Assembly (NCBI GenBank): GCA_041650615.1
Contig: JBAZKU010000001.1
Location: 249,216 to 313,215 of the forward strand
Source: Minisyncoccota bacterium
Lineage (GTDB): Bacteria > Patescibacteriota > Minisyncoccia > Phycocordibacterales > UBA9973
Reading direction: 5' to 3'
DNA: 64,000 nt
This document shows positions 12,885 through 51,312 of the stretch, piece after piece (position 1 is the first letter of the stretch; each line of letters starts with the position of its first letter). The notes under the pieces are model-generated. The model worked only from the letters and a program-made list of their open reading frames with translations, was not told where the DNA came from and did not search any database. The position numbers and the translations under genes are program-made.

Positions 12885-13832
12885 CTATTTTATTTCGTTT
12901 GAATAATCAATGCTTTCTAAAATGGTCATATTGTGTTTACTAAGATAATTATTGACCACAAAAATAGCTCCGATAATAGCAAGAGCAATCAATCCATTTG
13001 TTATTAAATCGGGATGTTGGTGTTTGATTTTAATAAAAATATTTAACAATAGGGCAAAAATAATTATTCCAAAAATAACGTAAAGAATCGTGTTTGTAGA
13101 ATTGCGAGGCGAAGCAAAAATTTTCTGCCAAAATGCGACTTTTTGATCTTGGTCGGCAGGAGTATTTATTTCAGCCCCAAGAACATCAGATGACTTTTCC
13201 GCATTTGCAACACCGGGAGTTGTTTCCGCTTCCGTTTCCTTAGACTGAATTCGCTTTGTTGTGTTTTTAATAGGATTTGCGTAGACTTGCGCCACAAATA
13301 CTGTTTCTCTTCCTTTGTAAATGCCGGTAGCCACGCCAGTGCCGATTTCTGTATAATTTCCTTTTACAATATTCGCTTTATGAGTAGGACTTGCCATCCA
13401 GGCCTCTGTAACATCTTTTGAATCGCTGAAATTAATGGCAAGGTTTTCTCCCGCATACTGATATTCATATCCCACTTTTTCCAGCCAATACCAAGGAGTT
13501 TTCCCTTCCGGACTGGTATGGGCAAAATAACTTTTTGCCGCCATATCTTCCGCTTTCATTTCTGCCGCTTCATTTAAAATCGGATTAACTACAAGGGTTT
13601 GAAGGTTTTGCTCCTTACGCTCTTGGTTGGTAAGTTGAGCCAAGACTGCCGGCAACACAGTTGCCATACCTCCTGTTATATTTATGCGAGTAAGAGTCGG
13701 TATTAAAAAAGCTAGTGTCTCCAAAAAGATTACGACAATGACAATGTTGCGAATATTACTGCCGCGCAAGATGTGCGGTCGATGCTCGTTGCCTTCATGA
13801 GGAATAAAATGTTTTTTAAACCAAGAAATCAT
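12885..13832 (-). CDS. CAP/SCP (cysteine-rich secretory protein-like, YkwD-type) domain membrane-anchored protein
   Basis: YFAHTSPEG...AGENLA...AWMASPTHKANI motifs of the CAP domain; N- and C-terminal TM segments. Confidence 0.6.
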   Translation of the reverse strand: MISWFKKHFIPHEGNEHRPHILRGSNIRNIVIVVIFLETLAFLIPTLTRINITGGMATVLPAVLAQLTNQERKEQNLQTLVVNPILNEAAEMKAEDMAAKSYFAHTSPEGKTPWYWLEKVGYEYQYAGENLAINFSDSKDVTEAWMASPTHKANIVKGNYTEIGTGVATGIYKGRETVFVAQVYANPIKNTTKRIQSKETEAETTPGVANAEKSSDVLGAEINTPADQDQKVAFWQKIFASPRNSTNTILYVIFGIIIFALLLNIFIKIKHQHPDLITNGLIALAIIGAIFVVNNYLSKHNMTILESIDYSNEIK

Positions 13833-13895
13833 TATTTTATATTATATATAATAAAACCCCATTTGTAAAGATGAGGTTTTATTTGTCAGTTTATA

Positions 13896-14687
13896 TTATT
13901 TATTTAAAATTGCGCGAGTGAGCGTTCCCACGATTCCGTCAGCTTCTAATTCATTTGCAATCTGGAATTTGATAGTAGCTGTTTTAGTCAGAGAACCGAA
14001 TTTTCCATCAGCAATTCCGCAATCATAACCGGCCGTCTTTAAGAATTTCTGAAGTTCCATAACTTCATTTCCTTGGGAACCTTCTTTAAGCAACGATGTA
14101 AAGTTAAATTTCTCAGTACCAAGCACTTGTCCGGAAACTACTTTTAAAATATAAGTGACAACGGTTGGATTAAGCGCAGTGTCATGAATCGTGCCTGTTA
14201 GAGTGTATGTTCCAACAGGATAATTGCCAGGGATCCTCATATCGGTACTGATATTGGCTAAATATTTTTGCGCGCCATCCAAAACTTTTATGGCAGTCGT
14301 GCCATTGGTTTCAATATAAGCGAAAGGTTTATTGCCACTGGCAACATCTTTGAAAAAAGATTCATAAGCCGCCGGATAATTTACTGAATAATAATTCTGC
14401 AAAGAAACAGTTTGCCCTGAAGCAGGCAATAATTTCAATTCAACGATTTCAGCCTTAAGATTTTCTGAAGCTGTTGACCCTGAAGAAAACTGAATTGCAT
14501 AATGTGTACTCGCACTACCGCTAGTGTTTAGAATATAAGCGCCACCACTCTGGGTCATCGAAACGCCATTAGCTGTGAAGCCGGAAATATTGAGAGTCGG
14601 AGATGTAGTACTGGTTGCAAAAGCAGATCCCATAGAAACAAAAAAACTGCCAAAAATAAACACTGCGATAATGAAATATTTTTTCAT
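13896..14687 (-). CDS. secreted protein with C-terminal peptidoglycan-binding (PG_binding_1) domain
   Basis: Signal peptide; C-terminus GSQGNEVMELQKFLKTAGYDCGIADGKFGSLTKTATIKFQ. Confidence 0.55.
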   Translation of the reverse strand: MKKYFIIAVFIFGSFFVSMGSAFATSTTSPTLNISGFTANGVSMTQSGGAYILNTSGSASTHYAIQFSSGSTASENLKAEIVELKLLPASGQTVSLQNYYSVNYPAAYESFFKDVASGNKPFAYIETNGTTAIKVLDGAQKYLANISTDMRIPGNYPVGTYTLTGTIHDTALNPTVVTYILKVVSGQVLGTEKFNFTSLLKEGSQGNEVMELQKFLKTAGYDCGIADGKFGSLTKTATIKFQIANELEADGIVGTLTRAILNK

Positions 14688-14741
14688 AATAATAAATTTA
14701 AATTATTTAATACCTCTAGTGTATATTAAATTAAAATTTTG

Positions 14742-16028
14742 TCAAATTAATTTTCTATAAGCGTAAAGACAGATAGAAATTACAAGAGCTATTAGGAAAA
14801 CCGGAATAGGACAATATTCATTTAAGACCAAAAGCACAAGTATAGCCAGAAGAGAAGAACTTCCAAAGAAAAGATAAAATCTATTTTTTATTTCTTCCTC
14901 CCCCACTAAATCTCTCTCGTATTTTTTTCTAAGCCACAATCGCCAAATTAAATAAATTACCAAAAGTACAAGCAAGGCAATCAAAGTGCAAATGGACAAT
15001 ATATCGCCCCAACCTGAAACAATAGCGGTAGCTAAATTATTATCCAAATTCGGAGTTTCTTCCGCAACCGTAGTGCTTTCTCCTAATACAGCTCCCTCAG
15101 AAGAATTTCCCAATCCAGACCCGTTATTATTTTCAGTAGAAGCTCCAAGCACTAAGCCAGCTTGAGCAAGTAAAGGCATTGTGAATTGATGTTCAACACT
15201 TACTGTTGGTGGCGAAGCGCGTGAGACAACACGATATAAATAAGTTACTCCGGGAGTTAAACCAGTCAAAACCATTTCGTGATTCATAACTTTTCCTGGG
15301 TCTTCAATATTAGAAAATGGGTAACCAAAATTTGTAGCATTTAAATCAAGATTATAAGGTCCAGGCATTGGCCCATAAACCACCTGGCTAGTAGCTAATT
15401 TATTTGTATTCCAAGTTATTGTAGCTGACCCAGTTCCTTCTACATTTGTTAAGTTAAGTGCTTGTTCATTAAATACAATAAGTATTATAGTAGATCCCCC
15501 ACCCCGGGAACCATGAGAAGACCCGCTAATTGAAGTAGTTTCATCTGTGGTCGTTTCATCGCCCTCAAAACCAACTTGCAAATTAAAGCTCATTGATTTG
15601 TTTTGATATTCATTTCCAGATTCATTATCAAATGTTGCCACAAAATCAAAGGTGGTACTTTCTCCAGCTGGAACTTGCGATAAAATTACTTCTGATTTAT
15701 TAAAGAAATTAGAAAAAGTATCATTATATAGAATATTCTCACCTTGTTTTATTTTAATGTGTACTACGTCTCCTAAACCATCATCATTTACCACATTTAA
15801 AGCGCGAGTTATGACACTATGTGGAACAGAAGTCTTATTGTTTAATATTACAAAACGACTGACAGAAGCGCCCGGAGCAAAACTTGCTTCACCGAAAAGA
15901 GGCGCTGTTTCAAATTGAACAGTTGGTACTTCAGCATTTGCCTGCCCGCAAAAACTTGCAAATATTGCTGTTATTATTGTGAGATATATTAATTTTTTGA
16001 AAATTTTGTTCATAATATTTTTATTCAC
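14742..16028 (-). CDS. hypothetical secreted surface protein with C-terminal membrane anchor
   Basis: Signal peptide, Thr/Ser-rich linker, two C-terminal TM helices. Confidence 0.4.
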   Translation of the reverse strand: MNKNIMNKIFKKLIYLTIITAIFASFCGQANAEVPTVQFETAPLFGEASFAPGASVSRFVILNNKTSVPHSVITRALNVVNDDGLGDVVHIKIKQGENILYNDTFSNFFNKSEVILSQVPAGESTTFDFVATFDNESGNEYQNKSMSFNLQVGFEGDETTTDETTSISGSSHGSRGGGSTIILIVFNEQALNLTNVEGTGSATITWNTNKLATSQVVYGPMPGPYNLDLNATNFGYPFSNIEDPGKVMNHEMVLTGLTPGVTYLYRVVSRASPPTVSVEHQFTMPLLAQAGLVLGASTENNNGSGLGNSSEGAVLGESTTVAEETPNLDNNLATAIVSGWGDILSICTLIALLVLLVIYLIWRLWLRKKYERDLVGEEEIKNRFYLFFGSSSLLAILVLLVLNEYCPIPVFLIALVISICLYAYRKLI

Positions 16029-35278: not shown

Positions 35279-35643
35279 ATACTATTATTATAGAATAATA
35301 CCAGATATAACTCAAACTAACTGGCTCCGGGGGTAGGGATATCTCCCTCGACTAAAATTTTTTCGTCAAAAAATTTTGTCTGGGCACCGACTCATGGATT
35401 TTTACTGCTGTAAAAATCACATTCCGTCGTTCGATCACCTACACGCACGACAAGCAGTTGTCGTGCTCGCCCGGAAGCATGAAACAAAAAGCCCATACGA
35501 AAGTATGAGTTTTTGTTTTTGCTCCCCTTACTGGACAAGTTCAGAACTGCAAACTGGACTAGAATTAAAAGCGATTTAGAGTTTAGTGGGATATTAGGGC
35601 TATTCCCTAAACTTTTACTTCAGAACTAATAAATAAATTATAC

Positions 35644-36090
35644 TCAAGTTCCTCTTCTAATTTTATTAGTTTCGTAGTGATTTTCAGTTATAGCAACTAC
35701 ATATAAAATCCTTTTTGGCTCAATATCAAAATAAAAAATACGACCAGTGCTTTGTAAAAAGAGTTCTCTTATTTCAATACCTTCATCAATCTTACTATAA
35801 AGCTTTTTATAATCACCCGAGTTTTCTACACTTTCATTTCTTATATTATTTCTTTGAAAATCAGCTCGTGTGTAAACCTTGGTTCCAATTTCTCTTAAAA
35901 TAGAAAGAGCTTTATTCCCTTTATTTTTACCAAGTATGTCTATTTCACAACAATTTTTGTTGTATTTTGAGAAAGATATTAAATAAGGTTTAGTTTCAGG
36001 TTCTTCTGTCTCTTGGGATACTTCGGTCACTTTCTGAGGTATCTCATTATAACTCTCAACCTGTGTAACCTCATCAGGAATTTCTGGCAT
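35644..36090 (-). CDS. hypothetical protein; C-terminus resembles a RelE/ParE-fold toxin (putative toxin partner of the Panacea protein)
   Basis: C-terminal GRIFYFDIEPKRILYVVAITENHYE pattern; 5-bp gap from the upstream Panacea gene. Confidence 0.3.
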   Translation of the reverse strand: MPEIPDEVTQVESYNEIPQKVTEVSQETEEPETKPYLISFSKYNKNCCEIDILGKNKGNKALSILREIGTKVYTRADFQRNNIRNESVENSGDYKKLYSKIDEGIEIRELFLQSTGRIFYFDIEPKRILYVVAITENHYETNKIRRGT

Positions 36091-36095
36091 AAGAG

Positions 36096-36596
36096 TTATT
36101 TTTTAGCTATTTCTAGTTTTTGAGAATAAAAGCTTTTCATTGTTTTGGGAGAAATTTCATTTTCTGAATTTTTAGAACTCTCTAGTCCTTCTCTAGCTTC
36201 TTTCCACGGTGTCTCATTATGTGTAAGCATTTCTAAATAATCAGCATCTAATCCACCATACACAGACCAAATCTCATCTAAAAGCTTTTTAGCTTCAGTA
36301 GGGATTGTTTTTATTAAAGTTGCGTCCGCTTCTTTTTGTATATAATTAAATCCAAAATCTTTGTATTTAACATACAAACTTTTGATTGCTGGTCCGTGAA
36401 CCCACGCTTCAATTTTTTCATTGAAAAGTTTTTGATTATTAAACACCAAAAACCAAGCTTGTGCATAGTAGACAAGTTTCTGAAGCTTTTTATTAGTTAT
36501 TCCTTTCTTATCTTTATTAGCTTTATCTATAAAGTATTCTGCGACAGTCAAAGCACTTACTTTTTTAGTGACTAAACTCATAATTGTATTATACAC
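36096..36596 (-). CDS. Panacea-domain (DUF4065, SocA-like) putative antitoxin
   Basis: KLQKLVYYAQAWFLVFNNQKLFNEKIEAWVHGP is characteristic of DUF4065. Confidence 0.5.
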   Translation of the reverse strand: MYNTIMSLVTKKVSALTVAEYFIDKANKDKKGITNKKLQKLVYYAQAWFLVFNNQKLFNEKIEAWVHGPAIKSLYVKYKDFGFNYIQKEADATLIKTIPTEAKKLLDEIWSVYGGLDADYLEMLTHNETPWKEAREGLESSKNSENEISPKTMKSFYSQKLEIAKK

Positions 36597-36661
36597 TTTT
36601 CTACTTAAATTTACAAAGAGGTGTTGATAAGTATTGTAAACTAAAGTAAACTATATAATAT

Positions 36662-38311
36662 ATGGCTTTTGAATTAGATACAGAAAATAAGAGCAAAAAT
36701 TATTTAGATGAAAAAGAGCTTTTTATTCTATATTATTTATCAAAAAATAAACACATTTCAACACAAGGAAGTAATGTCTTTAGACCTAATGAAAAAACTA
36801 TTTACCATAAACCTGACGGTCTTAATGACGTAGCTGAACTAGAAAAAAATCTTAATAAACATATATTGGAAGCTGAAGAAAAAAGAGAAAAAAAATTACA
36901 ATCTTCAATTGTAGCTAATTATTTAATTGGATTAGGTAGAACTTTTGATGAAAAAAGTTTTGCTGTCTTCGGAGATGCTGATTATAGTTTGGTTGAAGGC
37001 GGATTTTTGACAGATGATTTTCATAAGGAAATGTATGATTATTTAGCTTTATCAAAAGAAAAAAGAGAAAAAGATAAAAAATTAAACAAAGAACAAAAGA
37101 TATTTCTTGAGAATATAATTTCTAAAAAATTAGACCTCAATGACATAGAAACAAGGGTTAGATTTACTAAATTAGCTAACCCACCTATTAAATCTTATCA
37201 GGAAGCTATATTAAATAAAAAAGCAGAAAAAGAATTTATTGAGTTAGTAAATAAGTTAATCAAAGAACACGATGGCGGTAAATGGAATACCGAAGATGTT
37301 GAAAAATTTTTAGAGATATATTACAAGCACAACAAAGAACAATTTAAGAAAAATGTTACTACTCCAAGAACGTGGCTTTTTGAAGACAACCAAACCAAAC
37401 TTGCCAATCTTATTTTTGCACATACTGATTTTCATTTATTTATAAAAGATAATACAAAATTAAATAATTACTTAAAAGAATATATAAAACTTTTCAAAAA
37501 AGATGAGCTTGATAAATTAAGTAATAAAGGTCTAACTGGAAGCTTTTTTACAACAAGTAGATTGATACCTCTAAATAATCAACTTTGGGGCTTTGAAAAA
37601 CAAAAGGAAATTTTAGTACAACATATTGAAAAAAACTTTAATGAGTATAAAAAAAGTAGCTTACAAATAAGCCATCCATATTTTGAACCTGTTTATGAAG
37701 GCGATACAGAAGAAGGAATAACAGAGATTACTATATCTCCTAAAAATGAAGATGAGGCAGACCGATTTTTATTTGTGCATACAATAATAGCTCTTGAATA
37801 TAAGAAATTTCTTGAGATTAAAAGTTTATTTTATGGATATATGGATTTGTTTGATTTATATGACAGAGGTTTTGTATTTCAAATTAAATTACCTAAAGAA
37901 GTAAATAATAAAGATGAAGAAATAACAGAAATTTCAAAACCAGTTAAAAAATCAAACATTAAACCTTTCTTGGTAACAAAAAACAAAAAGGGTTATCTAA
38001 AGTTTGCAAAAAATAGCCCCAATATATTTATTGGGAGTATAACAACTCGGAAATTTAGACTACTACAAGCACTTATGGAGCCAATAGAAACCATTGGTAC
38101 AGCCAGAAAAATAGACAAAGTTTTTGAAGCAATTAAATTACCAAGAGATAACAATGACCCAAAACTAAAGGATAATTACCTTAGTCGTGACAGGAAGCTG
38201 TCAATTATTCAATACACAATAAAAGAAATACAAAAGATAAAAAAACTACAAAGAAAAATACACTTTTCGTTTGGTGAAAATAACCAAATAATCTGGGCAG
38301 ATTTTACTTAA
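36662..38311 (+). CDS. large hypothetical protein (549 aa), island cargo
   Basis: No recognisable motif; Lys/Glu-rich. Confidence 0.35.
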   Translation: MAFELDTENKSKNYLDEKELFILYYLSKNKHISTQGSNVFRPNEKTIYHKPDGLNDVAELEKNLNKHILEAEEKREKKLQSSIVANYLIGLGRTFDEKSFAVFGDADYSLVEGGFLTDDFHKEMYDYLALSKEKREKDKKLNKEQKIFLENIISKKLDLNDIETRVRFTKLANPPIKSYQEAILNKKAEKEFIELVNKLIKEHDGGKWNTEDVEKFLEIYYKHNKEQFKKNVTTPRTWLFEDNQTKLANLIFAHTDFHLFIKDNTKLNNYLKEYIKLFKKDELDKLSNKGLTGSFFTTSRLIPLNNQLWGFEKQKEILVQHIEKNFNEYKKSSLQISHPYFEPVYEGDTEEGITEITISPKNEDEADRFLFVHTIIALEYKKFLEIKSLFYGYMDLFDLYDRGFVFQIKLPKEVNNKDEEITEISKPVKKSNIKPFLVTKNKKGYLKFAKNSPNIFIGSITTRKFRLLQALMEPIETIGTARKIDKVFEAIKLPRDNNDPKLKDNYLSRDRKLSIIQYTIKEIQKIKKLQRKIHFSFGENNQIIWADFT

Positions 38312-38628
38312 TTTCCTTGATGCCTAGAGGGAAAAATTAAAATGGCTTTTGATATGCACAGAGGGATATTATAAACCCTCTTATTTTTTTTATTTATAAA
38401 TAATAAATAAAAACAAAAAACCCTCTCGTCCCCTCTAGCTGATTTTTGCTTAGAGGGTTCTTCATAATGCTTTTATGCAGGATAAGAAAGAAACAAAAAA
38501 AGAATTAAATCCAAAACTATTGGATTTATCGCCTGAAGATAGTCGTGATTTAGGTAGTTTCTTTACCTTGCTTATAAAAATAGATAAGCGAGTAAATCCT
38601 GCAAATTATCAACTTAATAAAAAAGAAT

Positions 38629-39747
38629 ATGATTGATACAGTCCGTCTCTTAATACCAAAAGAGAAAATGAGTTTCTTGTCTAGTGTGTCAAATTGGGAA
38701 CTTTATTCAAAAACAGAACAATACTCTAAATTTGTTCGCAATCCAAGTAAGGCAGAAAAAGAAACTGGAAATTACTTTCCTAGATTAACAGGATATAAGA
38801 GAAAGTATTCAATGGATGCAAATGTAATACTTGAGTTCTCTGTGCCTAAGCTACTATATCTAAATAATCTTGATGAACTAACAGACAAAAATTTTAATAT
38901 GGTCATAGAAGCTCTACAAGATAGATTAAAAGATATGGGAGTATTACTGACAAAATATGTCATAGAAAACGCCTCAGTTAGCTCGGTTCATTTCTCCAAA
39001 AATATACTTCTCAAAGATGGATATACAGCAACACATATTATATCCGAATTAGGAAAAATAGATTTAAGAAAAAGTTTTGATTTTGCAAAAACTAGATTTC
39101 TAAATGACGGACAGAGTATCTATGCTCACACAAACGCACACGAACTTGTTATTTACGACAAGGTTGCTGACTTAAAGAAAGATAAAAAACGAGCAATAGA
39201 TAAAGACCAAACCCTATATCAAAGAAGTTTGTTTGCTGAATTAAATAAAGATAAAGAATTAAAGGAAATTCTTCGCATTGAAATTCGTCTAAATCAAAAA
39301 CAGAAAATGAATAAAATCTTGGAAAATTTAGGATATGAAAAAAATCCGAAATTTAAGGATGTGTTTAATTCAGAGATGAGTAAGAAAGTAGTAAATGAGT
39401 ATTGGAAGAAATTGATATTAGACAGAAACTCTGGACTGTTTTCAATCAATCTTAGTATTAAAGATACACTGCAAGTTATGTTTTTAACGGATAAAAAATT
39501 AAAACCAAACAAAGCAGTTTATTTATTAGGACTGTATATACTTGCTAAAGATGAAAACGGTATTAGACAATTAAGAAGTATTGTTGAAAAACGAGTACAC
39601 GAACGAACTTGGTATCGTATGGCAAAAGAATTAAGATACGCAAACGAGATTATAACCAAAAATAACCTTAGAGATTGGGTTAAACAAATCAATAAAACCC
39701 TTGACGACTTCAAGCCATATAGGCATAAAGAGTTGTTCACTGATTAA
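38629..39747 (+). CDS. hypothetical protein (372 aa), island cargo; possibly a replication-initiator-like protein
   Basis: No firm motif; the replication-initiator guess is weak. Confidence 0.3.
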   Translation: MIDTVRLLIPKEKMSFLSSVSNWELYSKTEQYSKFVRNPSKAEKETGNYFPRLTGYKRKYSMDANVILEFSVPKLLYLNNLDELTDKNFNMVIEALQDRLKDMGVLLTKYVIENASVSSVHFSKNILLKDGYTATHIISELGKIDLRKSFDFAKTRFLNDGQSIYAHTNAHELVIYDKVADLKKDKKRAIDKDQTLYQRSLFAELNKDKELKEILRIEIRLNQKQKMNKILENLGYEKNPKFKDVFNSEMSKKVVNEYWKKLILDRNSGLFSINLSIKDTLQVMFLTDKKLKPNKAVYLLGLYILAKDENGIRQLRSIVEKRVHERTWYRMAKELRYANEIITKNNLRDWVKQINKTLDDFKPYRHKELFTD

Positions 39748-39785
39748 AAGTTGCTATGTAAAGTATTGTCAAGTATAATATAAAT

Positions 39786-39998
39786 ATGAAATATAAAATA
39801 TGTTCACAAAAATTAAGAGACGGAAGATGGAAACCTGCATATTTACCTCCTATCAAACAGGTTGGAACAGAAAGTTTGGAATTTTCTGAACCTACAGAAA
39901 TTGATAAACATTTTCAAACTAAAGAAGATGCCGATAGTTGTGCATTATTACACTTAACCAAAAAAGGAATTAAAAATGAAGAAATTGAATACAATTAA
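39786..39998 (+). CDS. small hypothetical protein
   Basis: 70-aa ORF. Confidence 0.25.
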   Translation: MKYKICSQKLRDGRWKPAYLPPIKQVGTESLEFSEPTEIDKHFQTKEDADSCALLHLTKKGIKNEEIEYN

Positions 39999-40164
39999 AG
40001 AATTTTATAAAGCTGAAGATTTAGCAGAAAAATTAGATGTAAACATTATGACTATTTATCGCTATATCAAAGCTGGCAAATTAAAAGCGTACAAAATTGG
40101 TCGGGAGTATAGAATTGATAAGGTTGAATTTAATGCTTTTCTTAAAAAAGTAAGCACAAGATAG
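39976..40164 (+). CDS. excisionase-family HTH DNA-binding protein (candidate recombination directionality factor)
   Basis: IMTIYRYIKAGKLKAYKIGREYRI matches MerR/Xis-type HTH_17. Confidence 0.55.
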   Translation: MKKLNTIKEFYKAEDLAEKLDVNIMTIYRYIKAGKLKAYKIGREYRIDKVEFNAFLKKVSTR

Positions 40165-40167
40165 GTT

Positions 40168-42162
40168 ATGAATACACTTACAAACTCAATTGAATACTTA
40201 GATATAAATGAAACAGTTTCAATACTAGGAGTGTCTTCAGCAACAATAAGAAATTGGATTAAATATAATTACATAACACCAAAAGAAACACCAAACAAGA
40301 AACTGGTATTTCATTCCAACCAAATCAGAGAGCTTAAAGAAAGAATTGCTTCAGGAGAAGTAAATCGTTTGAACAAAAGAGCTAACAAAAAGAACTCGTG
40401 CAACACTTTTATACCTGATGAATATGCAGATAATCAAGAAGTAATAAAACTAGTTCAGGAAATCCTAGAAAATCATAAAATAAACAAACTACAGATAGAT
40501 AAAGTATTACTAGTCCTAGCAATAAACCTACTAAAAAATAATAACCTCGTTAATTATAAAAAGTTATCTAATCTAGCAGAATTAGATTACAAGAACGAAA
40601 TAATTAAGAACGAAATAAATTGGTGGTTAGAAAAAATAGAAGATAAAACAATAGATAAAAATTATGCAGAATTATTGAGTATTACTATCCCTAAAATAAC
40701 AGATATTCTAGGGTTAGTTTATCAATCCCTATCAACAGAAGGAAGTAAGGCAGAAGGCGGTTCATATTACACACCAAAAAAAGTGGTTGATGAAATTATT
40801 GATAATTATGTAGAAAAAAATCACACAGTATTAGACCCTTGTTGCGGTACAGGACAATTTATACTTTCAATTGCAAGAAAAGTAAAAGACCCAACTAAAA
40901 TATGGGGTTTTGATATTGATGAAAAAGCTGTAAGATTAGCCAGATTAAATTTAATACTTCATTTTTCTAATGTTGATTTTGAGCCACATATTTATCATAA
41001 AAACACCTTAACTGAAATAAACTCTTCTGGTCTATTTTCAGAAAACAATATACCAATGTTTGATGTAATTGCTACTAATCCGCCTTGGGGTGTACATTTT
41101 TCAAAAAGTGAAACTTATGAATTACAAAATCTATTTCCTGTAATTAAATCAGGAGAAGCATTCTCTTACTTCATATATAAAGGTCTTGAACTGCTAAAAG
41201 AAAATGGTATCCTATCCTTCATACTTCCAGAGTCAATACTTAATATAAAAACACACAGAGATATTCGTGAAGTACTTGTAAATAAGACAACAGTAAAAAA
41301 AGTAAAATACCTAAATCGTGTATTTAAGAATGTATTTACTCCAGTAATCAGACTTGATGTTATAAATAAAAAACCTCATTTCACAAATAAAATTAAAGCA
41401 GAAAAAGATGGTTCTACATACGAAATTGAACAAACGAGAATACAGAACAACCCTGACCGTATTCTTAATGTTTTTACAGATACAGCAGATATATCCCTGT
41501 TTGATAAAACTTATGAAATACCACATACAACACTAAAAGATAAGGCAGAATGGGCTCTAGGGGTTGTTACGGGTGATAACAAAAAACATTTATCAGACAA
41601 AAAAACAAAAACGAATGAACCAATTTTGACAGGAAAAGACATTAAGAAGTTTACCGCAATTTCAGCTTCAAACTTTATTGAGTTTAATCCTGATAATTTT
41701 CAACAAGTTGCTCCTGAATACAAATATCGTGCTAAAGAAAAATTGATTTATAAGTTTATATCAAAGGAACTTGTTTTCTCCTATGATGACAAACAAACGC
41801 TAACATTAAACAGTGCAAATATACTTATACCCAAAGTTGATAACTATCCTATAAAAACCATTTTAGCATTATTCAATTCTTCTTTATATCAATTACTTTA
41901 TCAAAAAAAGTTTGGGGCAATTAAAATACTGAAAGGAGATATTGAACAACTACCACTTCCAATAATAGACAAAGGAAAGCACAAAGACATTGAAAGAATT
42001 GTAAACAAACTGCTAGATAATACAAAACCTACCGAAAATAGAAAAAGAGTTTATCTGGAATTAGATGATTATATAATGAATTTGTTTAGTTTGAAGAAAG
42101 AAGAAAAAGATTATATAAGAAAATCAATTAAAGTGTCGGACAAATTATTAAATAATATATAA
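40168..42162 (+). CDS. N6-adenine DNA methyltransferase (gamma class, Eco57I/TaqI-like) with N-terminal HTH
   Basis: Motif I VLDPCCGTGQF, motif IV NPPWG; N-terminal ATIRNWIKYN HTH; C-terminal target-recognition region. Confidence 0.7.
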   Translation: MNTLTNSIEYLDINETVSILGVSSATIRNWIKYNYITPKETPNKKLVFHSNQIRELKERIASGEVNRLNKRANKKNSCNTFIPDEYADNQEVIKLVQEILENHKINKLQIDKVLLVLAINLLKNNNLVNYKKLSNLAELDYKNEIIKNEINWWLEKIEDKTIDKNYAELLSITIPKITDILGLVYQSLSTEGSKAEGGSYYTPKKVVDEIIDNYVEKNHTVLDPCCGTGQFILSIARKVKDPTKIWGFDIDEKAVRLARLNLILHFSNVDFEPHIYHKNTLTEINSSGLFSENNIPMFDVIATNPPWGVHFSKSETYELQNLFPVIKSGEAFSYFIYKGLELLKENGILSFILPESILNIKTHRDIREVLVNKTTVKKVKYLNRVFKNVFTPVIRLDVINKKPHFTNKIKAEKDGSTYEIEQTRIQNNPDRILNVFTDTADISLFDKTYEIPHTTLKDKAEWALGVVTGDNKKHLSDKKTKTNEPILTGKDIKKFTAISASNFIEFNPDNFQQVAPEYKYRAKEKLIYKFISKELVFSYDDKQTLTLNSANILIPKVDNYPIKTILALFNSSLYQLLYQKKFGAIKILKGDIEQLPLPIIDKGKHKDIERIVNKLLDNTKPTENRKRVYLELDDYIMNLFSLKKEEKDYIRKSIKVSDKLLNNI

Positions 42163-42167
42163 AACTT

Positions 42168-42905
42168 ATGGAATACTTAAAAGAAAAATTAAATAAACTT
42201 ATTGATGAACTTTCATCAGACAAAAGAGATATAATAAGGTCTCGTTTATCTGATTTGGTTTCTGTTTATCCTTTTAATGAATATGAATATATAATTTCAT
42301 CCTTAATGGGTTTTGGAAAAATAACACTAGATGATTACTATGAGATTAGAGACGACTATGTATCTCGCAATATGTATCTATATATCTTTGAGATAGCTTC
42401 CCCAAGAGGATTTGGAGAATTATGGGCACAAGGTCATATTAAAGAATTAGAACCTGATTTTATAAAACCTACTAAAAAGGTGGATGAAAATTATAGCGGA
42501 CAATATGATTTAGCTTTACCAATAGAAAATAAATTTATCACAATAGAAGTTAAAGCATCTAGGGCTGTTGATGGTGGTAGTTCTGAACCATTGTTTGTTA
42601 AAGCCCTTTCTTATGAATGCAAGAGCCCTTTTTGGATGAACTTTCAACAAATTAAACCAGCTTGTGCTGATGTGTTTTTATGGGTTGCTGTTTGGAGAGA
42701 TGTTATAAAATACTGGGTTCTATCTTCAGATGAAGTTAAAAACAATAAATACTATTCAAAAGGTCAACATCGTGGAAATAATGGTGAAGGTCAGTTGCAT
42801 ATAAAAGAAGATAATATAAATGAGTTCAAAAAATATGAGGTTAAATCTAATAAACTTAAAGAAGCAGTAATAGATGCTTACAAAAGACAAAAAGGGATAA
42901 AATAA
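42168..42905 (+). CDS. hypothetical protein, candidate PD-(D/E)xK restriction endonuclease partner of the methyltransferase
   Basis: ...YDLALPIENKFITIEVKAS... fits D-x(n)-ExK; 5-bp gap after the methyltransferase gene. Confidence 0.3.
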   Translation: MEYLKEKLNKLIDELSSDKRDIIRSRLSDLVSVYPFNEYEYIISSLMGFGKITLDDYYEIRDDYVSRNMYLYIFEIASPRGFGELWAQGHIKELEPDFIKPTKKVDENYSGQYDLALPIENKFITIEVKASRAVDGGSSEPLFVKALSYECKSPFWMNFQQIKPACADVFLWVAVWRDVIKYWVLSSDEVKNNKYYSKGQHRGNNGEGQLHIKEDNINEFKKYEVKSNKLKEAVIDAYKRQKGIK

Positions 42906-42908
42906 ATT

Positions 42909-44426
42909 ATGAAAGCAATAATCGTAGCAAGAGTATCAACAGACGAACAAAAAGAGAACTCCCCAAGTGCTCAACTATTCAGAATGCAACATTATTGTGA
43001 AAATCGTGATTTTATAATTTCTAAAGAATTTAGTTTTATAGAAAGTGCTTACAAAATAAAAAGAGATGAATTTGATAACATCATTGAGTTTATTGAGGAT
43101 TGTATAAAGAGAAAAGAAAAAATAGCTGTATGTTTTGATAAAGTAGATAGATTATCAAGAAACATTTTTGATAAAAGAGTGGCTTGGTTATATGAAAAAG
43201 CAATCAATAATGAAATTGAACTTCATTTCGTATCAGATAGCCAAGTCATTAACGATAAGATGAATGCAGGCGATAAATTTGCTTTTGGAATGAAACTAGG
43301 GCTTTCTAAATACTATTCTGATGCTATTAGTGATAATGTAAAACGTGCCTTTGAGCAAAAACGAAGAAATGGCGAATGGACAGGTGCAGTTCGCTTGGGC
43401 TATCTTAATGTACCTGCTGATATAGAAAAACGATTGAGAAAAGACATAATCATAGACCCTGAACGGGGATATTTAATAACTAAAATGTTTGAAATGTATG
43501 CAACTGGTAATTATTCACTAGAAACTATAAGAAAAGAAATTACTGATTTAGGATTACGAAGTTTGAAAGAATTTAAGTTGTCAAAAAGTTGCGTAGAAAA
43601 TATACTAAAAGACCCATTTTATTGTGGAATAGCAACTTCAAAGAAATATGAGCAAACTTGGGTACATAAATATCCTCGTTTAATAACTCAAGAACTATTT
43701 GAGAGATGTAAAGAAATCAGAGAAGGTAAAAATAAAAAACGCTCTAAATTTGTTTCAAAAGAATTTATATTCAAAGGACTTCTTACCTGTAAAAATTGTG
43801 GTTGTATGTTAAGCCCTGAAATACATAAAAAGAAAAGTGGTTTGACCTATGTTTACTATTCCTGCACTAATTCTAAAGGTATATGTAAACGCCAGTATGT
43901 ACCTGAAACAGCCCTTCTTAAGCCAATTTACAAGGTTTTAGACCAGTTTGAAGGTATTACAGAAGAAGCCCAGAATACTATCGTTAAAGAGCTTAGGGAA
44001 ACTACAGAAGCAGAGGTCACCTTTCATAAAGCCCAAGTAAATCGTATTAGAGCAGAATACGACCAGTTAAAAAAGAAAGATGATAGGTTGCTTGAAATGT
44101 ACCTTGAAGAAGATAAGAGTATTACTAAGGACATCTATGACAAAAAACATCAAGAGTATCACGACAAGATACAACTTTTGGAAATTGAATTATCAGAACA
44201 TACAAATGCCGATTATGACTATCAAACCACTGTGGCTACAGTACTTTCTGTCGCTCGCAGAGTAAAGGAAATCTTTGAAAGTTCTGAACCATACGAAAAA
44301 AGAGCAATTTTGAATTATTTACTTCAGAACCCTGTTGTAAATGAGAAAAAGCTAGAGTTTACAATACGTTCTCCATTTAATTTAGTGCTTGAACTAGCTA
44401 CTAGTCCTAACTGGCTCCGGGGGTAG
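42909..44426 (+). CDS. large serine recombinase (integrase)
   Basis: N-terminal resolvase domain IIVARVSTDEQ (catalytic Ser), recombinase domain, Zn-ribbon CKNCGC...CTNSKGIC, coiled-coil; the 3' end overlaps the tRNA-Asn 3' end. Confidence 0.8.
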   Translation: MKAIIVARVSTDEQKENSPSAQLFRMQHYCENRDFIISKEFSFIESAYKIKRDEFDNIIEFIEDCIKRKEKIAVCFDKVDRLSRNIFDKRVAWLYEKAINNEIELHFVSDSQVINDKMNAGDKFAFGMKLGLSKYYSDAISDNVKRAFEQKRRNGEWTGAVRLGYLNVPADIEKRLRKDIIIDPERGYLITKMFEMYATGNYSLETIRKEITDLGLRSLKEFKLSKSCVENILKDPFYCGIATSKKYEQTWVHKYPRLITQELFERCKEIREGKNKKRSKFVSKEFIFKGLLTCKNCGCMLSPEIHKKKSGLTYVYYSCTNSKGICKRQYVPETALLKPIYKVLDQFEGITEEAQNTIVKELRETTEAEVTFHKAQVNRIRAEYDQLKKKDDRLLEMYLEEDKSITKDIYDKKHQEYHDKIQLLEIELSEHTNADYDYQTTVATVLSVARRVKEIFESSEPYEKRAILNYLLQNPVVNEKKLEFTIRSPFNLVLELATSPNWLRG

Positions 44427-44486
44427 GGATCGAACCTACGACCAATCGCTTAACAGGCGACCGCTCTACCGCTGAGCTACCCCGGA
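44412..44486 (-). tRNA. tRNA-Asn (GTT), CCA encoded
   Basis: Manual fold: acceptor TCCGGGG/CCCCGGA, D arm GCTC-AGCGGTA-GAGC, anticodon loop CTGTTAA, T arm GTAGG-TTCGATC-CCTAC. Confidence 0.8.
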
Positions 44487-44728
44487 ATATTTACTATTTT
44501 GTTTTTTATAAACTTTCTTCCCGCACAACTTTTAAAATACTTTTCTCTTTTTCTTGCATCGCTTATATTTGCTAATTCTTCTGTATAAATTATACTCCAC
44601 GGCATATATTGTTTTGTATAATAACTTAACCCTGAATTGTGTTCCAATAAACGACGTTTCAAATTTGTTGTACTACCAACGTATAATTTTGGATATTTTA
44701 AGCTTTTTAATATATAAACATAAGCCAT
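44477..44728 (-). CDS. small GIY-YIG nuclease-superfamily protein
   Basis: YVYILKSLKYPKLYVGSTTNLKRRLLEHN; its stop codon lies within the tRNA-Asn 5' end. Confidence 0.7.
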   Translation of the reverse strand: MAYVYILKSLKYPKLYVGSTTNLKRRLLEHNSGLSYYTKQYMPWSIIYTEELANISDARKREKYFKSCAGRKFIKNKIVNIPG

Positions 44729-50868: not shown

Positions 50869-50945
50869 TGGTGGACCCTACAGGACTCGAACCTGCCACC
50901 TCCTCATTGCAAATGAGGCGCTCTAGCCAGATGAGCTAAGGGCCC
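50869..50945 (-). tRNA. tRNA-Ala (TGC), CCA encoded
   Basis: Manual fold: GGGCCCT acceptor with G3:U70, anticodon loop TTTGCAA, T loop TTCGAGT. Confidence 0.8.
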
Positions 50946-51043
50946 AATATTTATACAGACCTTATTCTATCTTATTTTTCTAATAATGCAAATTTAGCCA
51001 ATAATATTTGTATTTTTTTATGTTTCAGTTATTATTTTTATAA

Positions 51044-51114
51044 GGGCCTGTAGTATAGTAGTAACACGCGTCCATGGCATGGACGAATCGGGGGTGCGAT
51101 TCCCCCCAGGTCCA
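51044..51114 (+). tRNA. tRNA-Ala (GGC), atypical D and T loops
   Basis: GGGCCTG acceptor with G3:U70, anticodon loop ATGGCAT; D loop AGTAGTA lacks the G18G19 pair, T loop TGCGATT has G at position 55, and the D stem has one mismatch. Confidence 0.55.
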
Positions 51115-51198
51115 CATTAAAGGGCCTATATCAAAATCCGATATAGACCCTGCGTTCGGACGAAATGAAATTTTCATATTTCATTTCGCTCCTCACTT

Positions 51199-51269
51199 GG
51201 GCCTATAGTAAAGTGGTATTACGCGGCATTCGCATTGCCGAGGCGCGAGTTCGATTCTCGCTAGGTCCA
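51199..51269 (+). tRNA. tRNA-Ala (CGC)
   Basis: GGGCCTA acceptor with G3:U70, D arm GTAA-AGTGGTA-TTAC, anticodon loop TTCGCAT, T loop TTCGATT. Confidence 0.75.
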
Positions 51270-51312
51270 CATTAGACGATTTCTAACTTTATCTAAAATT
51301 GACCACCAAAAC

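Follow-up and report, generated by a model that had tools for sequence, protein, structure and literature searches.

Organisation of the locus

The window analysed here is a stretch of 64,000 nucleotides from a Candidatus Paceibacterota genome (assembly GCA_041650615.1, contig JBAZKU010000001.1, positions 249,216 to 313,215), and the subject of this work is an integrated element that lies within it against a tRNA-Asn(GTT) gene. The explanation that we consider likely is that this is an integrative plasmid-like element of 8,893 bp at the 3′ end of the tRNA gene, that it belongs to a family whose members also occur as circles, that its attachment site (attP) lies within its own integrase gene (int) and recombines at a GCTCC core, and that a structured module now flanking its left end was in place beforehand.

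The target gene, tRNA-Asn(GTT), is found at 44412..44486 on the minus strand (ARAGORN and Rfam, 70 bits). A 24-mer, CTAACTGGCTCCGGGGGTAGGGAT, is present in exact copies at 35317-35340 and 44407-44430 and nowhere else in the window; allowing up to three mismatches revealed no further match there, and none is expected in shuffled sequence. Its right copy consists of the 3′ 19 nt of the tRNA, including the encoded CCA, together with 5 nt of trailer. GC content is 0.296 inside the element compared with 0.355-0.358 in the flanks, and no other 9-kb stretch of the window is as low. A first-pass annotation of the sequence had reported an integrated element at this tRNA, with a recombinase reading into the tRNA, an excisionase-type gene and defence-type cargo, and much of that description holds: the repeat is exact, has just two copies in the window and derives on its right side from the tRNA as described. 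In addition, the GC content is low relative to the flanks, and the element is absent from related genomes.

Abutting the tRNA, int (42909..44426, plus strand) encodes a large serine recombinase (LSR; hereafter Int) of 505 aa in its integrated, short form, the last codons and stop of which are read from the tRNA. The protein ends in ..SPNWLRG and its stop codon falls within the right 24-mer. It matches the phrog_95 integrases (1.5e-71) and carries Resolvase (PF00239, residues 3-157, 1.2e-17), Recombinase (PF07508, 3.1e-14) and Zn_ribbon_recom (PF13408, 6.5e-07) domains, with a VARVSTDEQ motif in which R8, V9 and S10 are invariant in 34 homologues. An AlphaFold2 model of a long-form relative, P0128, has catalytic, recombinase and zinc-ribbon domains followed, after a Cys-rich beta ribbon, by long coiled-coil helices (346-393 and 401-452); short helices are predicted at modest confidence in the tail of the long form. 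The earlier description of a 505-aa LSR with a catalytic serine, a zinc ribbon and a coiled coil, ending in the tRNA, is upheld by the domain matches and, for the coiled coil, by this model of a relative.

Junctions of the element

Comparison of related loci places the ends of the element elsewhere than at the 24-mer. L072 (Int 84% identical) is the nearest relative in which the left end is resolved, and its two junctions share only TGGCTCC: the left one reads host..CCAATT, TGGCTCC, CATTGCTGGACAAG.. and the right one ..CCTAAC, TGGCTCC, GGAGGTAGG.., and at the left one there is no 24-mer and no structured module. Nearly all related loci present, in this order, an unrelated hairpin with a T-run, GCTCC, and a conserved tail that is described in the next section. 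Since GCTCC is the junction core common to these loci, the element would measure 8,893 bp, and its LSR junctions are most likely the copies of GCTCC at 35521..35525 (attL core) and 44414..44418 (attR core), both given for the plus strand. On the tRNA strand, the latter comprises the 3′ end of the acceptor, the discriminator base and the initial C of CCA. The distance from GCTCC to GCTCC, 8.9 kb, replaces the length of about 9.1 kb in the first-pass annotation. GTCC/GGAC motifs are placed symmetrically, 10-13 nt either side of the core, which suggests that crossover occurs at its central TC. A crossover in the tRNA T-loop, with the T-arm as the attB dyad, was an idea that we dropped.

The contig L121 presents a homologous site in which the distal copy of the tRNA end, the module, a terminator and tRNA-Asn (71/72 identical to that of the window) stand in line, colinear with window positions 35323-35520 and 44414-44486 and with nothing between them. 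The window's terminator, a hairpin and T-run identified by a terminator scan (35482..35509, minus strand), has a counterpart in L121 that adjoins the tRNA; it probably lay directly downstream of tRNA-Asn before insertion and would now form the host-side arm of attL. The tRNA of L121 is without an encoded CCA, and the bases to the left of GCTCC at attR derive from int. Because these bases belong to int, it is the Trp codon (TGG) of int that gives the window's tRNA gene its encoded CCA, of which it supplies the last two bases. A related host, L130, has a GIY-YIG gene that is 77% identical to the window's and overlaps the tRNA in the same way, and carries only a 0.7-kb remnant at the insertion position. 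Of the unoccupied tRNA-Asn locus that had been proposed as a check, the related contig L121 offers a homologue without the element and L130 one with a remnant only; none was found for the exact element or species. Other types of tail directly follow the same core in L085, L100, L106, L108 and others, and these different tails mark the site as an insertion hot spot.

Attachment site and integrase gene

At the left end of the element, running through the attL core, is an orphan 3′ tail of int (35519..35629, plus strand; ..LLPLLDKFRTANWTRIKSDLEFSGILGLFPKLLLQN and a stop), which is in the same codon register as the ..TGG CTC.. of int at 44412-44417 and lacks a start codon. About 115 nt here (about 35510-35635) show 72-85% nucleotide identity in ~35 loci, with codon-like variation. 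A non-coding RNA and an origin were both entertained for this left-end sequence and dropped, as the sequence is coding. Across the orphan tails of 24 integrated copies, the ratio of nonsynonymous to synonymous polymorphism (pN/pS) is 0.37, with pS near saturation. This value indicates that the tail is maintained as protein, which in turn implies regular passage through a circular state.

In relatives whose Int has no tRNA after it, the Int open reading frame (ORF) continues for ~33 codons into a homologous tail. The tail peptide stands as an orphan at the left end of ~50 integrated loci, and is fused to Int in circles and at the junction between tandem copies in L048. Querying with the hypothetical fused protein returned, among the 120 best Int homologues, 11 long-tail Ints (530-547 aa), all on contigs of <10 kb; the closest long-tail Int on record is no closer than 77% identity to the window Int. 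Because the ORF is continuous with the tail in circles and tandem junctions and the tail is orphaned in integrated copies, attP can be placed within the int gene, most probably 33 codons before int's own stop. The window tail is in register with the ..AAC TGG CTC.. of int, and joining the two at GCTCC gives a predicted Int of 537 aa. Each integration or excision would on this evidence swap the last ~33 codons of int, between a 537-aa free form and a 505-aa integrated form ending in tRNA-derived codons. Our search of the literature found no account of an attP within a serine integrase gene.

A tRNA-linked structured module

The module, ~200 nt in length, lies at 35314..35499 (to 35519 in a wider count; covariance model R1, 162 bits), outside the element. 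Besides a 41-nt motif (35348-35388) it contains three hairpins, and the helix that closes it imitates the acceptor and T stems of tRNA-Asn. Its GC content is 0.42-0.46 and its fold z-scores against shuffled sequence are -6.4 and -6.9. In the module consensus, compensatory changes occur in 19 of 36 pairs, and a wobble asymmetry of 10 vs 2 weakly favours the tRNA strand as the RNA strand; at the end of the stretch between the left 24-mer and the tail, a terminator is predicted on the minus strand, which is the tRNA strand. Neither the module nor the conserved left-end sequence has a matching Rfam family.

The nearly invariant 41-nt motif was found in 65 copies in 63 metagenome contigs (L078-L140, e.g. 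L121:958-1160 and L082:2683-2866), with 2-3 copies in some contigs. Where the context is complete, the module lies 145-173 nt from a tRNA 3′ end, with at least 20 isoacceptors represented, and on its far side is a 14-21-nt duplicate of the 3′ end of its own tRNA, reaching to the T-loop edge. The 24-mer of the window has the same geometry, and its left copy (35317..35340, plus strand) would accordingly be read as the distal copy of the tRNA-Asn 3′ end and the outer end of the module, not as an LSR junction. The module stands directly left of the element tail in L025, L058, L066 and L015, and the covariance model finds none in circular relatives. A tRNA island is classically recognised by a partial tRNA copy made by the island's own integrase; the partial copy here belongs to a module that is found without the element. 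The module is, to judge from these comparisons, independent of the element and was present at tRNA-Asn before the element arrived, and the 24-mer repeat is most likely older than the element and not a marker of its end. The reading of the 24-mer as the element's own att duplication has been abandoned, its left copy belonging to an independent module that occurs at many tRNAs without the element. The module itself could be a tRNA-mimic RNA or a miniature insertion that targets the T-loop.

Several further features of such tRNA loci were recorded. In L095 (4198-12335), the gene for another LSR (513 aa, 24% identical) extends 42 nt into tRNA-Glu(TTC), and a module matched to tRNA-Glu lies 8 kb away on the far side, in the same geometry. 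A tRNA-Asn-like sequence after the module in L120 (1200-1292) is interrupted near the anticodon and followed, at the contig end, by a weak match to a group I intron (E = 0.28, below threshold). About 300 nt to the right of tRNA-Asn in L074 (5150-5300) is a second, partial copy of the tRNA 5′ half, its D-loop replaced by a short palindrome. In the window, the 83-aa GIY-YIG gene (44477-44728, minus strand) extends 10 nt into the 5′ end of tRNA-Asn, an overlap that is kept in L130 (990-1238), and three tRNA-Ala genes fall within 400 nt at 50869-51270 (TGC on the minus strand, GGC and CGC on the plus strand), none with an adjacent module.

Distribution of the element family

A scan of one genome per species yielded 59 genome loci, from Paceibacteria and from Magasanik-, Nomura-, Wolfe- (a complete genome), Kaiser-, Gracili-, Uhr-, Komeili- and Ryanbacteria. 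Some 50 of the 59 carry the replication gene rep, a helix-turn-helix gene (HTH_17), 0-4.5 kb of variable cargo and then an LSR 45-85% identical to that of the window. In 31 loci the LSR adjoins or overlaps tRNA-Asn(GTT) with its 3′ end, and in 3 the neighbour is tRNA-Gln. The order of the family backbone is orphan int tail, left cargo bay, conserved promoter, variable ORF, Rep, HTH_17, right cargo bay and LSR, and the cargo of both bays differs freely between members (restriction-modification (R-M), toxin-antitoxin (TA) and other genes). The element thus belongs to a large family that is widespread in Patescibacteria and apparently undescribed; we found no description of it in the literature.

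Family members exist as free circles as well. Two contigs from different sequencing runs/samples, L070 and L071, are circular permutations of one and the same 9,406-bp sequence, each with a 30-nt terminal overlap, and L068 and L069 have the same Int-to-tail junction in a permuted gene order. In addition, L048 (6772-19685) holds two identical tandem copies of a 6,441-bp member, where the inner junction is an attP-type fusion of Int and tail and the outer Int reads tRNA-like codons.

Some related loci have a more complex arrangement. A second, distantly related LSR, of ~25% identity, lies just left of the element at L014:549-2396 and 13469-15052, L030:5716-7368, L037:413-2077, L043:2044-3765 and L056:13917-15530. 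This second LSR reads in frame into the family tail, and the family Int there reads into another tail (..DDFRTIDWAKEYPYP..), which looks as if two element families had integrated one after the other at a single core, with hybrid Int-tail junctions as the product. L019, L020, L027, L029 and L036 have 2-3 tail copies each, with extra orphan fragments left of the intact element; the extra tails look like scars left by older insertions that have been displaced from the tRNA. Between the module/tRNA duplicate and the tail are 4.8 kb of redox genes in L009 (1977-6947; thioredoxin reductase, glutaredoxin, an ArsR-type regulator and a sigma factor) and a Fic-type gene in L041 (5898-7814), both of which may be cargo left by earlier elements.

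Replication, regulatory and cargo genes

A rightward operon starts at a promoter-like sequence, TTGATAAGTATTGTAAACTAAAGTAAACTATAT, with a GTAAACT repeat (36624..36656, plus strand; promoter scan), which is conserved in 13 related loci. At 38629..39747 (plus strand) is encoded a 372-aa protein, which from its homologues, its motifs and Foldseek we assign, with moderate confidence, as a rolling-circle initiator of the G2P/Rep_trans type (Rep). It has 918 homologues at ~70% identity, all in Patescibacteria, one of which bears the UniRef name 'Replication initiation protein'. Rep_trans (PF02486) matches 1 of 27 homologues (E = 0.002, below the curated cut-off) and not the window protein. The motifs ..VIYDK.. 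and ..IRFEIRL.. are invariant, as are Y165 and Y176, the latter in VIYDK; these motifs resemble the active-site region of pT181-type initiators. Searching the Rep model against BFVD with Foldseek gave five matches of probability 1.0 (E 1e-9 to 1.5e-5, TM-score 0.37-0.44), one of them a named inovirus G2P.

Upstream of rep, a 549-aa protein (36662..38311, plus strand) appears to be an accessory gene specific to the element family. It has no Pfam domain and 70 homologues, all in Patescibacteria and mostly on small contigs, and occupies the same position in L030, L043 and L069; a search of PDB sequences returned chance matches only. The two large ORFs had been described as of unknown function, which still applies to the 549-aa ORF but no longer to the 372-aa ORF, the probable Rep conserved in the family. 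A 53-aa ORF (38475..38636, plus strand) that overlaps the rep start was found by tblastn in L013, L036, L041, L046, L059, L068, L069 and L072, and a 70-aa ORF (39786..39998, plus strand) has no family match in Pfam or PHROGs. Pfam and PHROGs scans found no virion or conjugation genes among the element's 10 ORFs.

Downstream of rep is the 62-aa HTH_17 protein (39976..40164, plus strand), of the excisionase family of DNA-binding proteins, with matches to PF12728 (1.2e-13; 51.6 bits, cut-off 27), TIGR01764 'excise' (1.7e-11; 44.2 bits, cut-off 28.8) and PADLOC mad1 (2e-12). The gene is present in ~50 loci at 58-87% identity, always just downstream of rep, and in circles too. Its conservation does not depend on which cargo is carried; the gene belongs to the backbone of nearly every family member and not to the R-M cargo, and the idea of a mere R-M controller was dropped for the same reason. 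We regard it as a candidate directionality factor or regulator, in keeping with its earlier description as an Xis-like gene.

The right cargo bay holds a type II N6-adenine DNA methyltransferase with an N-terminal helix-turn-helix (40168..42162, plus strand; N6_Mtase, Eco57I, TaqI_C; PADLOC MTase_II, 2.2e-122) and a type II restriction endonuclease (42168..42905, plus strand; PADLOC REase_II, 1.4e-72). PADLOC scores these neighbouring genes as a complete type II R-M pair, which makes good the nuclease partner that had been put forward as a candidate; a copy of the restriction enzyme, 84% identical, is carried by L069. In the left bay, a Panacea/SocA-domain protein of antitoxin type (36096..36596, minus strand; PF13274, 1.9e-19; phrog_1281, 8.7e-48) bears out the earlier domain call. 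Its 148-aa partner (35644..36090, minus strand) is a candidate toxin, the gene pair recurring in L009, L029, L063 and L068. The partner had been called RelE-like, a label that finds no support: the protein has no RelE-type or other family match in Pfam, PHROGs, NCBIfam or PADLOC, and chance matches only to PDB sequences.

Proposed cycle and alternative explanations

The cycle that we envisage would begin with a circle expressing the long Int, which would join attP (..CCT AAC TGG CTC CCC TTA..) to the GCTCC of the tRNA, probably at the central TC. The whole tRNA would be left intact, its CCA end becoming encoded by the TGG codon of int, and the integrated copy would express the short Int with its tRNA-encoded tail. 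Excision, perhaps assisted by HTH_17, would restore the 537-aa Int and the circle, which would replicate by a rolling-circle route using Rep, and the R-M and Panacea pairs would act in defence or addiction. We infer that the element is currently mobile in this strain.

The first-pass annotation had implied another geometry, with crossover inside the 24-mer (tRNA T-loop to 3′ end), an element spanning 35317/35341-44430 (9.1 kb) and the 200-nt stretch as its own left end. This we judge improbable. It would account naturally for a perfect 24/24 repeat that includes the 5 nt of trailer, for the module lying beside the element tail in L025, L058, L066 and L015, and for the first 53 nt of the module being 89% identical between the window and L025 though the Ints are only 71% identical. 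However, module and tRNA duplicate are found together at >20 tRNA species without a recombinase element, L121 has the module and tRNA-Asn with no element, the circular relatives lack the module, and L072 has neither 24-mer nor module at its left junction; nor does this geometry explain why an in-frame, selected tail should stand beside GCTCC. The two models can be told apart by the junctions they predict. With the GCTCC core, attP would read ..CTACTAGTCCTAACTGGCTCCCCTTACTGGACAAGTTCAGAAC and attB ..GTATGAGTTTTTGTTTTTGCTCCGGGGGTAGGGATCGAACC, whereas crossover in the 24-mer would give an attP junction ..CTAGTCCTAACTGGCTCCGGGGGTAGGGATATCTCCCTCGACT (int 3′ end, 24-mer and ATCTCCCTCGAC) and an empty site ACTCAAACTAACTGGCTCCGGGGGTAGGGATCGAACC.

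Several observations nonetheless count against an integrative plasmid-like element with GCTCC junctions. The identity of the repeat reaches 5-7 nt (CTAACTG) past what the module predicts, and at the right copy CTAACTG is int sequence; this suggests that the distal copy preserves a native attB arm and that attB and attP half-sites are alike, as the L072 host arm ATCCAATTTG resembles GTCCTAACTG. The Rep assignment depends on a model of medium confidence (pLDDT 63), on TM-scores of ~0.4 and on a single weak Pfam match, and neither a sequence profile search nor Foldseek against the PDB returned anything significant for Rep. Finally, no circular junction or empty site was found for the exact element or species, and in each of the three or four samples where the element is present its position is unchanged. 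An NCBI MAG of Candidatus Paceibacterota likewise contains the exact Int. Exact-protein queries with the two flanking genes led to occupied or broken contigs only, and a metagenome scan for an empty site with the host left flank gave 0 matches; the JGI contig L004 has the pattern, so that sample lies outside the scanned collection.

These last results would also be expected of a fixed island, that is, a real element which is immobile in this lineage and whose genes are kept by recent insertion or by selected cargo. The identical element at the identical site in ENA ERZ27247363, JGI 3300037067 and Logan SRR8542065, the absence of a known empty site in the same species and of a long-tail form on record closer than 77% identity all agree with it. 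Against this, the Rep, HTH and Int ORFs are intact, as is an orphan tail without its own start codon, and GC content is still 6 points below that of the host. Right-flank contigs from three samples end inside tRNA-Asn, as assemblies of mixed populations would, although tRNA sequence shared between organisms would break them likewise. Taking both sides together, we think a fixed island unlikely. An integrated filamentous-phage-like or satellite virus, suggested by the likeness of Rep to inovirus gene II protein, is very improbable: Foldseek does match Rep to 'Replication-associated protein G2P [Inoviridae sp.]' and to related unnamed viral proteins, but the 10 ORFs include no coat, Zot-type assembly or other virion gene, no close relatives of Int or Rep were found in 2.9 million viral contigs, tblastn with Rep found none in plasmid and phage collections (50,697 phage records), and cargo varies freely between members.

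Discussion

An integrative plasmid-like element with attP inside int has partial counterparts in several known systems. The actinomycete integrative and conjugative elements (AICEs) pSAM2 and SLP1 are small elements at a tRNA 3′ end that excise to a circle, use a rolling-circle Rep and combine an int/xis/rep module with cargo; they have tyrosine integrases, a long segment of identity to the tRNA and a transfer protein of the FtsK type. The present element resembles them in its small size, tRNA 3′-end location, int, xis-type and rep module and cargo, but differs in having an LSR with a 5-bp core, no transfer gene and a host among the Patescibacteria. In the integration-dependent immunity of mycobacteriophages, attP lies inside the repressor ORF, and integration by a tyrosine integrase replaces the C-terminus of the repressor, with loss of a degradation tag. 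There too an attP within an ORF lets integration replace the C-terminus of a protein, although the ORF in our case is that of a serine integrase and not of a repressor.

The tycheposons of Prochlorococcus are tRNA-targeting cargo elements of a streamlined genome, with replication genes and with remnants beside the tRNA, and 27 of 937 have an LSR; most use tyrosine recombinases and have partial-tRNA flanks, their replication modules are of primase, helicase or polymerase type, and an attP in the recombinase gene is not reported (bioRxiv 10.1101/2020.12.28.424599). Our family is like them in targeting a tRNA, carrying cargo and its own replication gene and leaving degenerate remnants next to the tRNA, and unlike most of them in its LSR, its Rep initiator and its attP inside int. 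Serine integrases of phages and integrative conjugative elements (phiC31, Bxb1, A118, SPbeta) combine the catalytic serine domain with recombinase, zinc-ribbon and coiled-coil parts, use short att sites with a small core and are expected to need a separate small protein for excision (PMC3783163, PMC12286644). The domain set and the short att with a small common core are shared by our Int, but in those systems attP lies beside the gene and targets are mostly protein-coding, whereas here attP is placed within int and the target is a tRNA acceptor end. An att site within the integrase gene is a property of the archaeal SSV1-type 'suicidal' integrases, an arrangement said to be known only in Archaea (PMC8371274). 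In both cases integration changes the integrase ORF; the SSV1-type enzyme, a tyrosine recombinase, is split into two inactive halves, while this bacterial serine enzyme keeps all recognised domains and would swap only its last ~33 residues.

A more speculative proposal, which we regard as possible but doubtful, is that Int reports the state of the element: the circle would make a 537-aa Int with the tail ..LPLVDKFRTANW..FSGILGLFP..LQN and the integrated copy a 505-aa Int with a tRNA-encoded end, and the exchange of tails could be a built-in switch of directionality or stability. Separately, and with the same reserve, the 200-nt module could represent a new class of tRNA-mimicking RNA or of miniature mobile element. 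Such a tail switch, if true, would be a natural counterpart of engineered fusions of Int with recombination directionality factors and of the 'suicidal' integrases of Archaea, with no precedent reported to date among serine recombinases or in bacteria. The position of attP inside int poses a directly testable question as to how serine integrases set direction. For annotation, the locus illustrates that a perfect tRNA-fragment repeat can mislead as to the ends of an element.

Plasmids of Patescibacteria (Candidate Phyla Radiation, CPR) have rarely been studied, according to a 2025 groundwater study (PMC12023590), and the mobile elements of the phylum are barely charted. A replicon combined with a site-specific integrase and a universal tRNA target would be a natural start for genetic tools in uncultivated CPR bacteria. 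The family moves R-M and toxin-antitoxin cargo and appears in both integrated and circular form, and its members are small, very widespread and unusually conserved: protein identity of ~70% across class-level lineages points to recent gene flow across a phylum for which no conjugation system is known.

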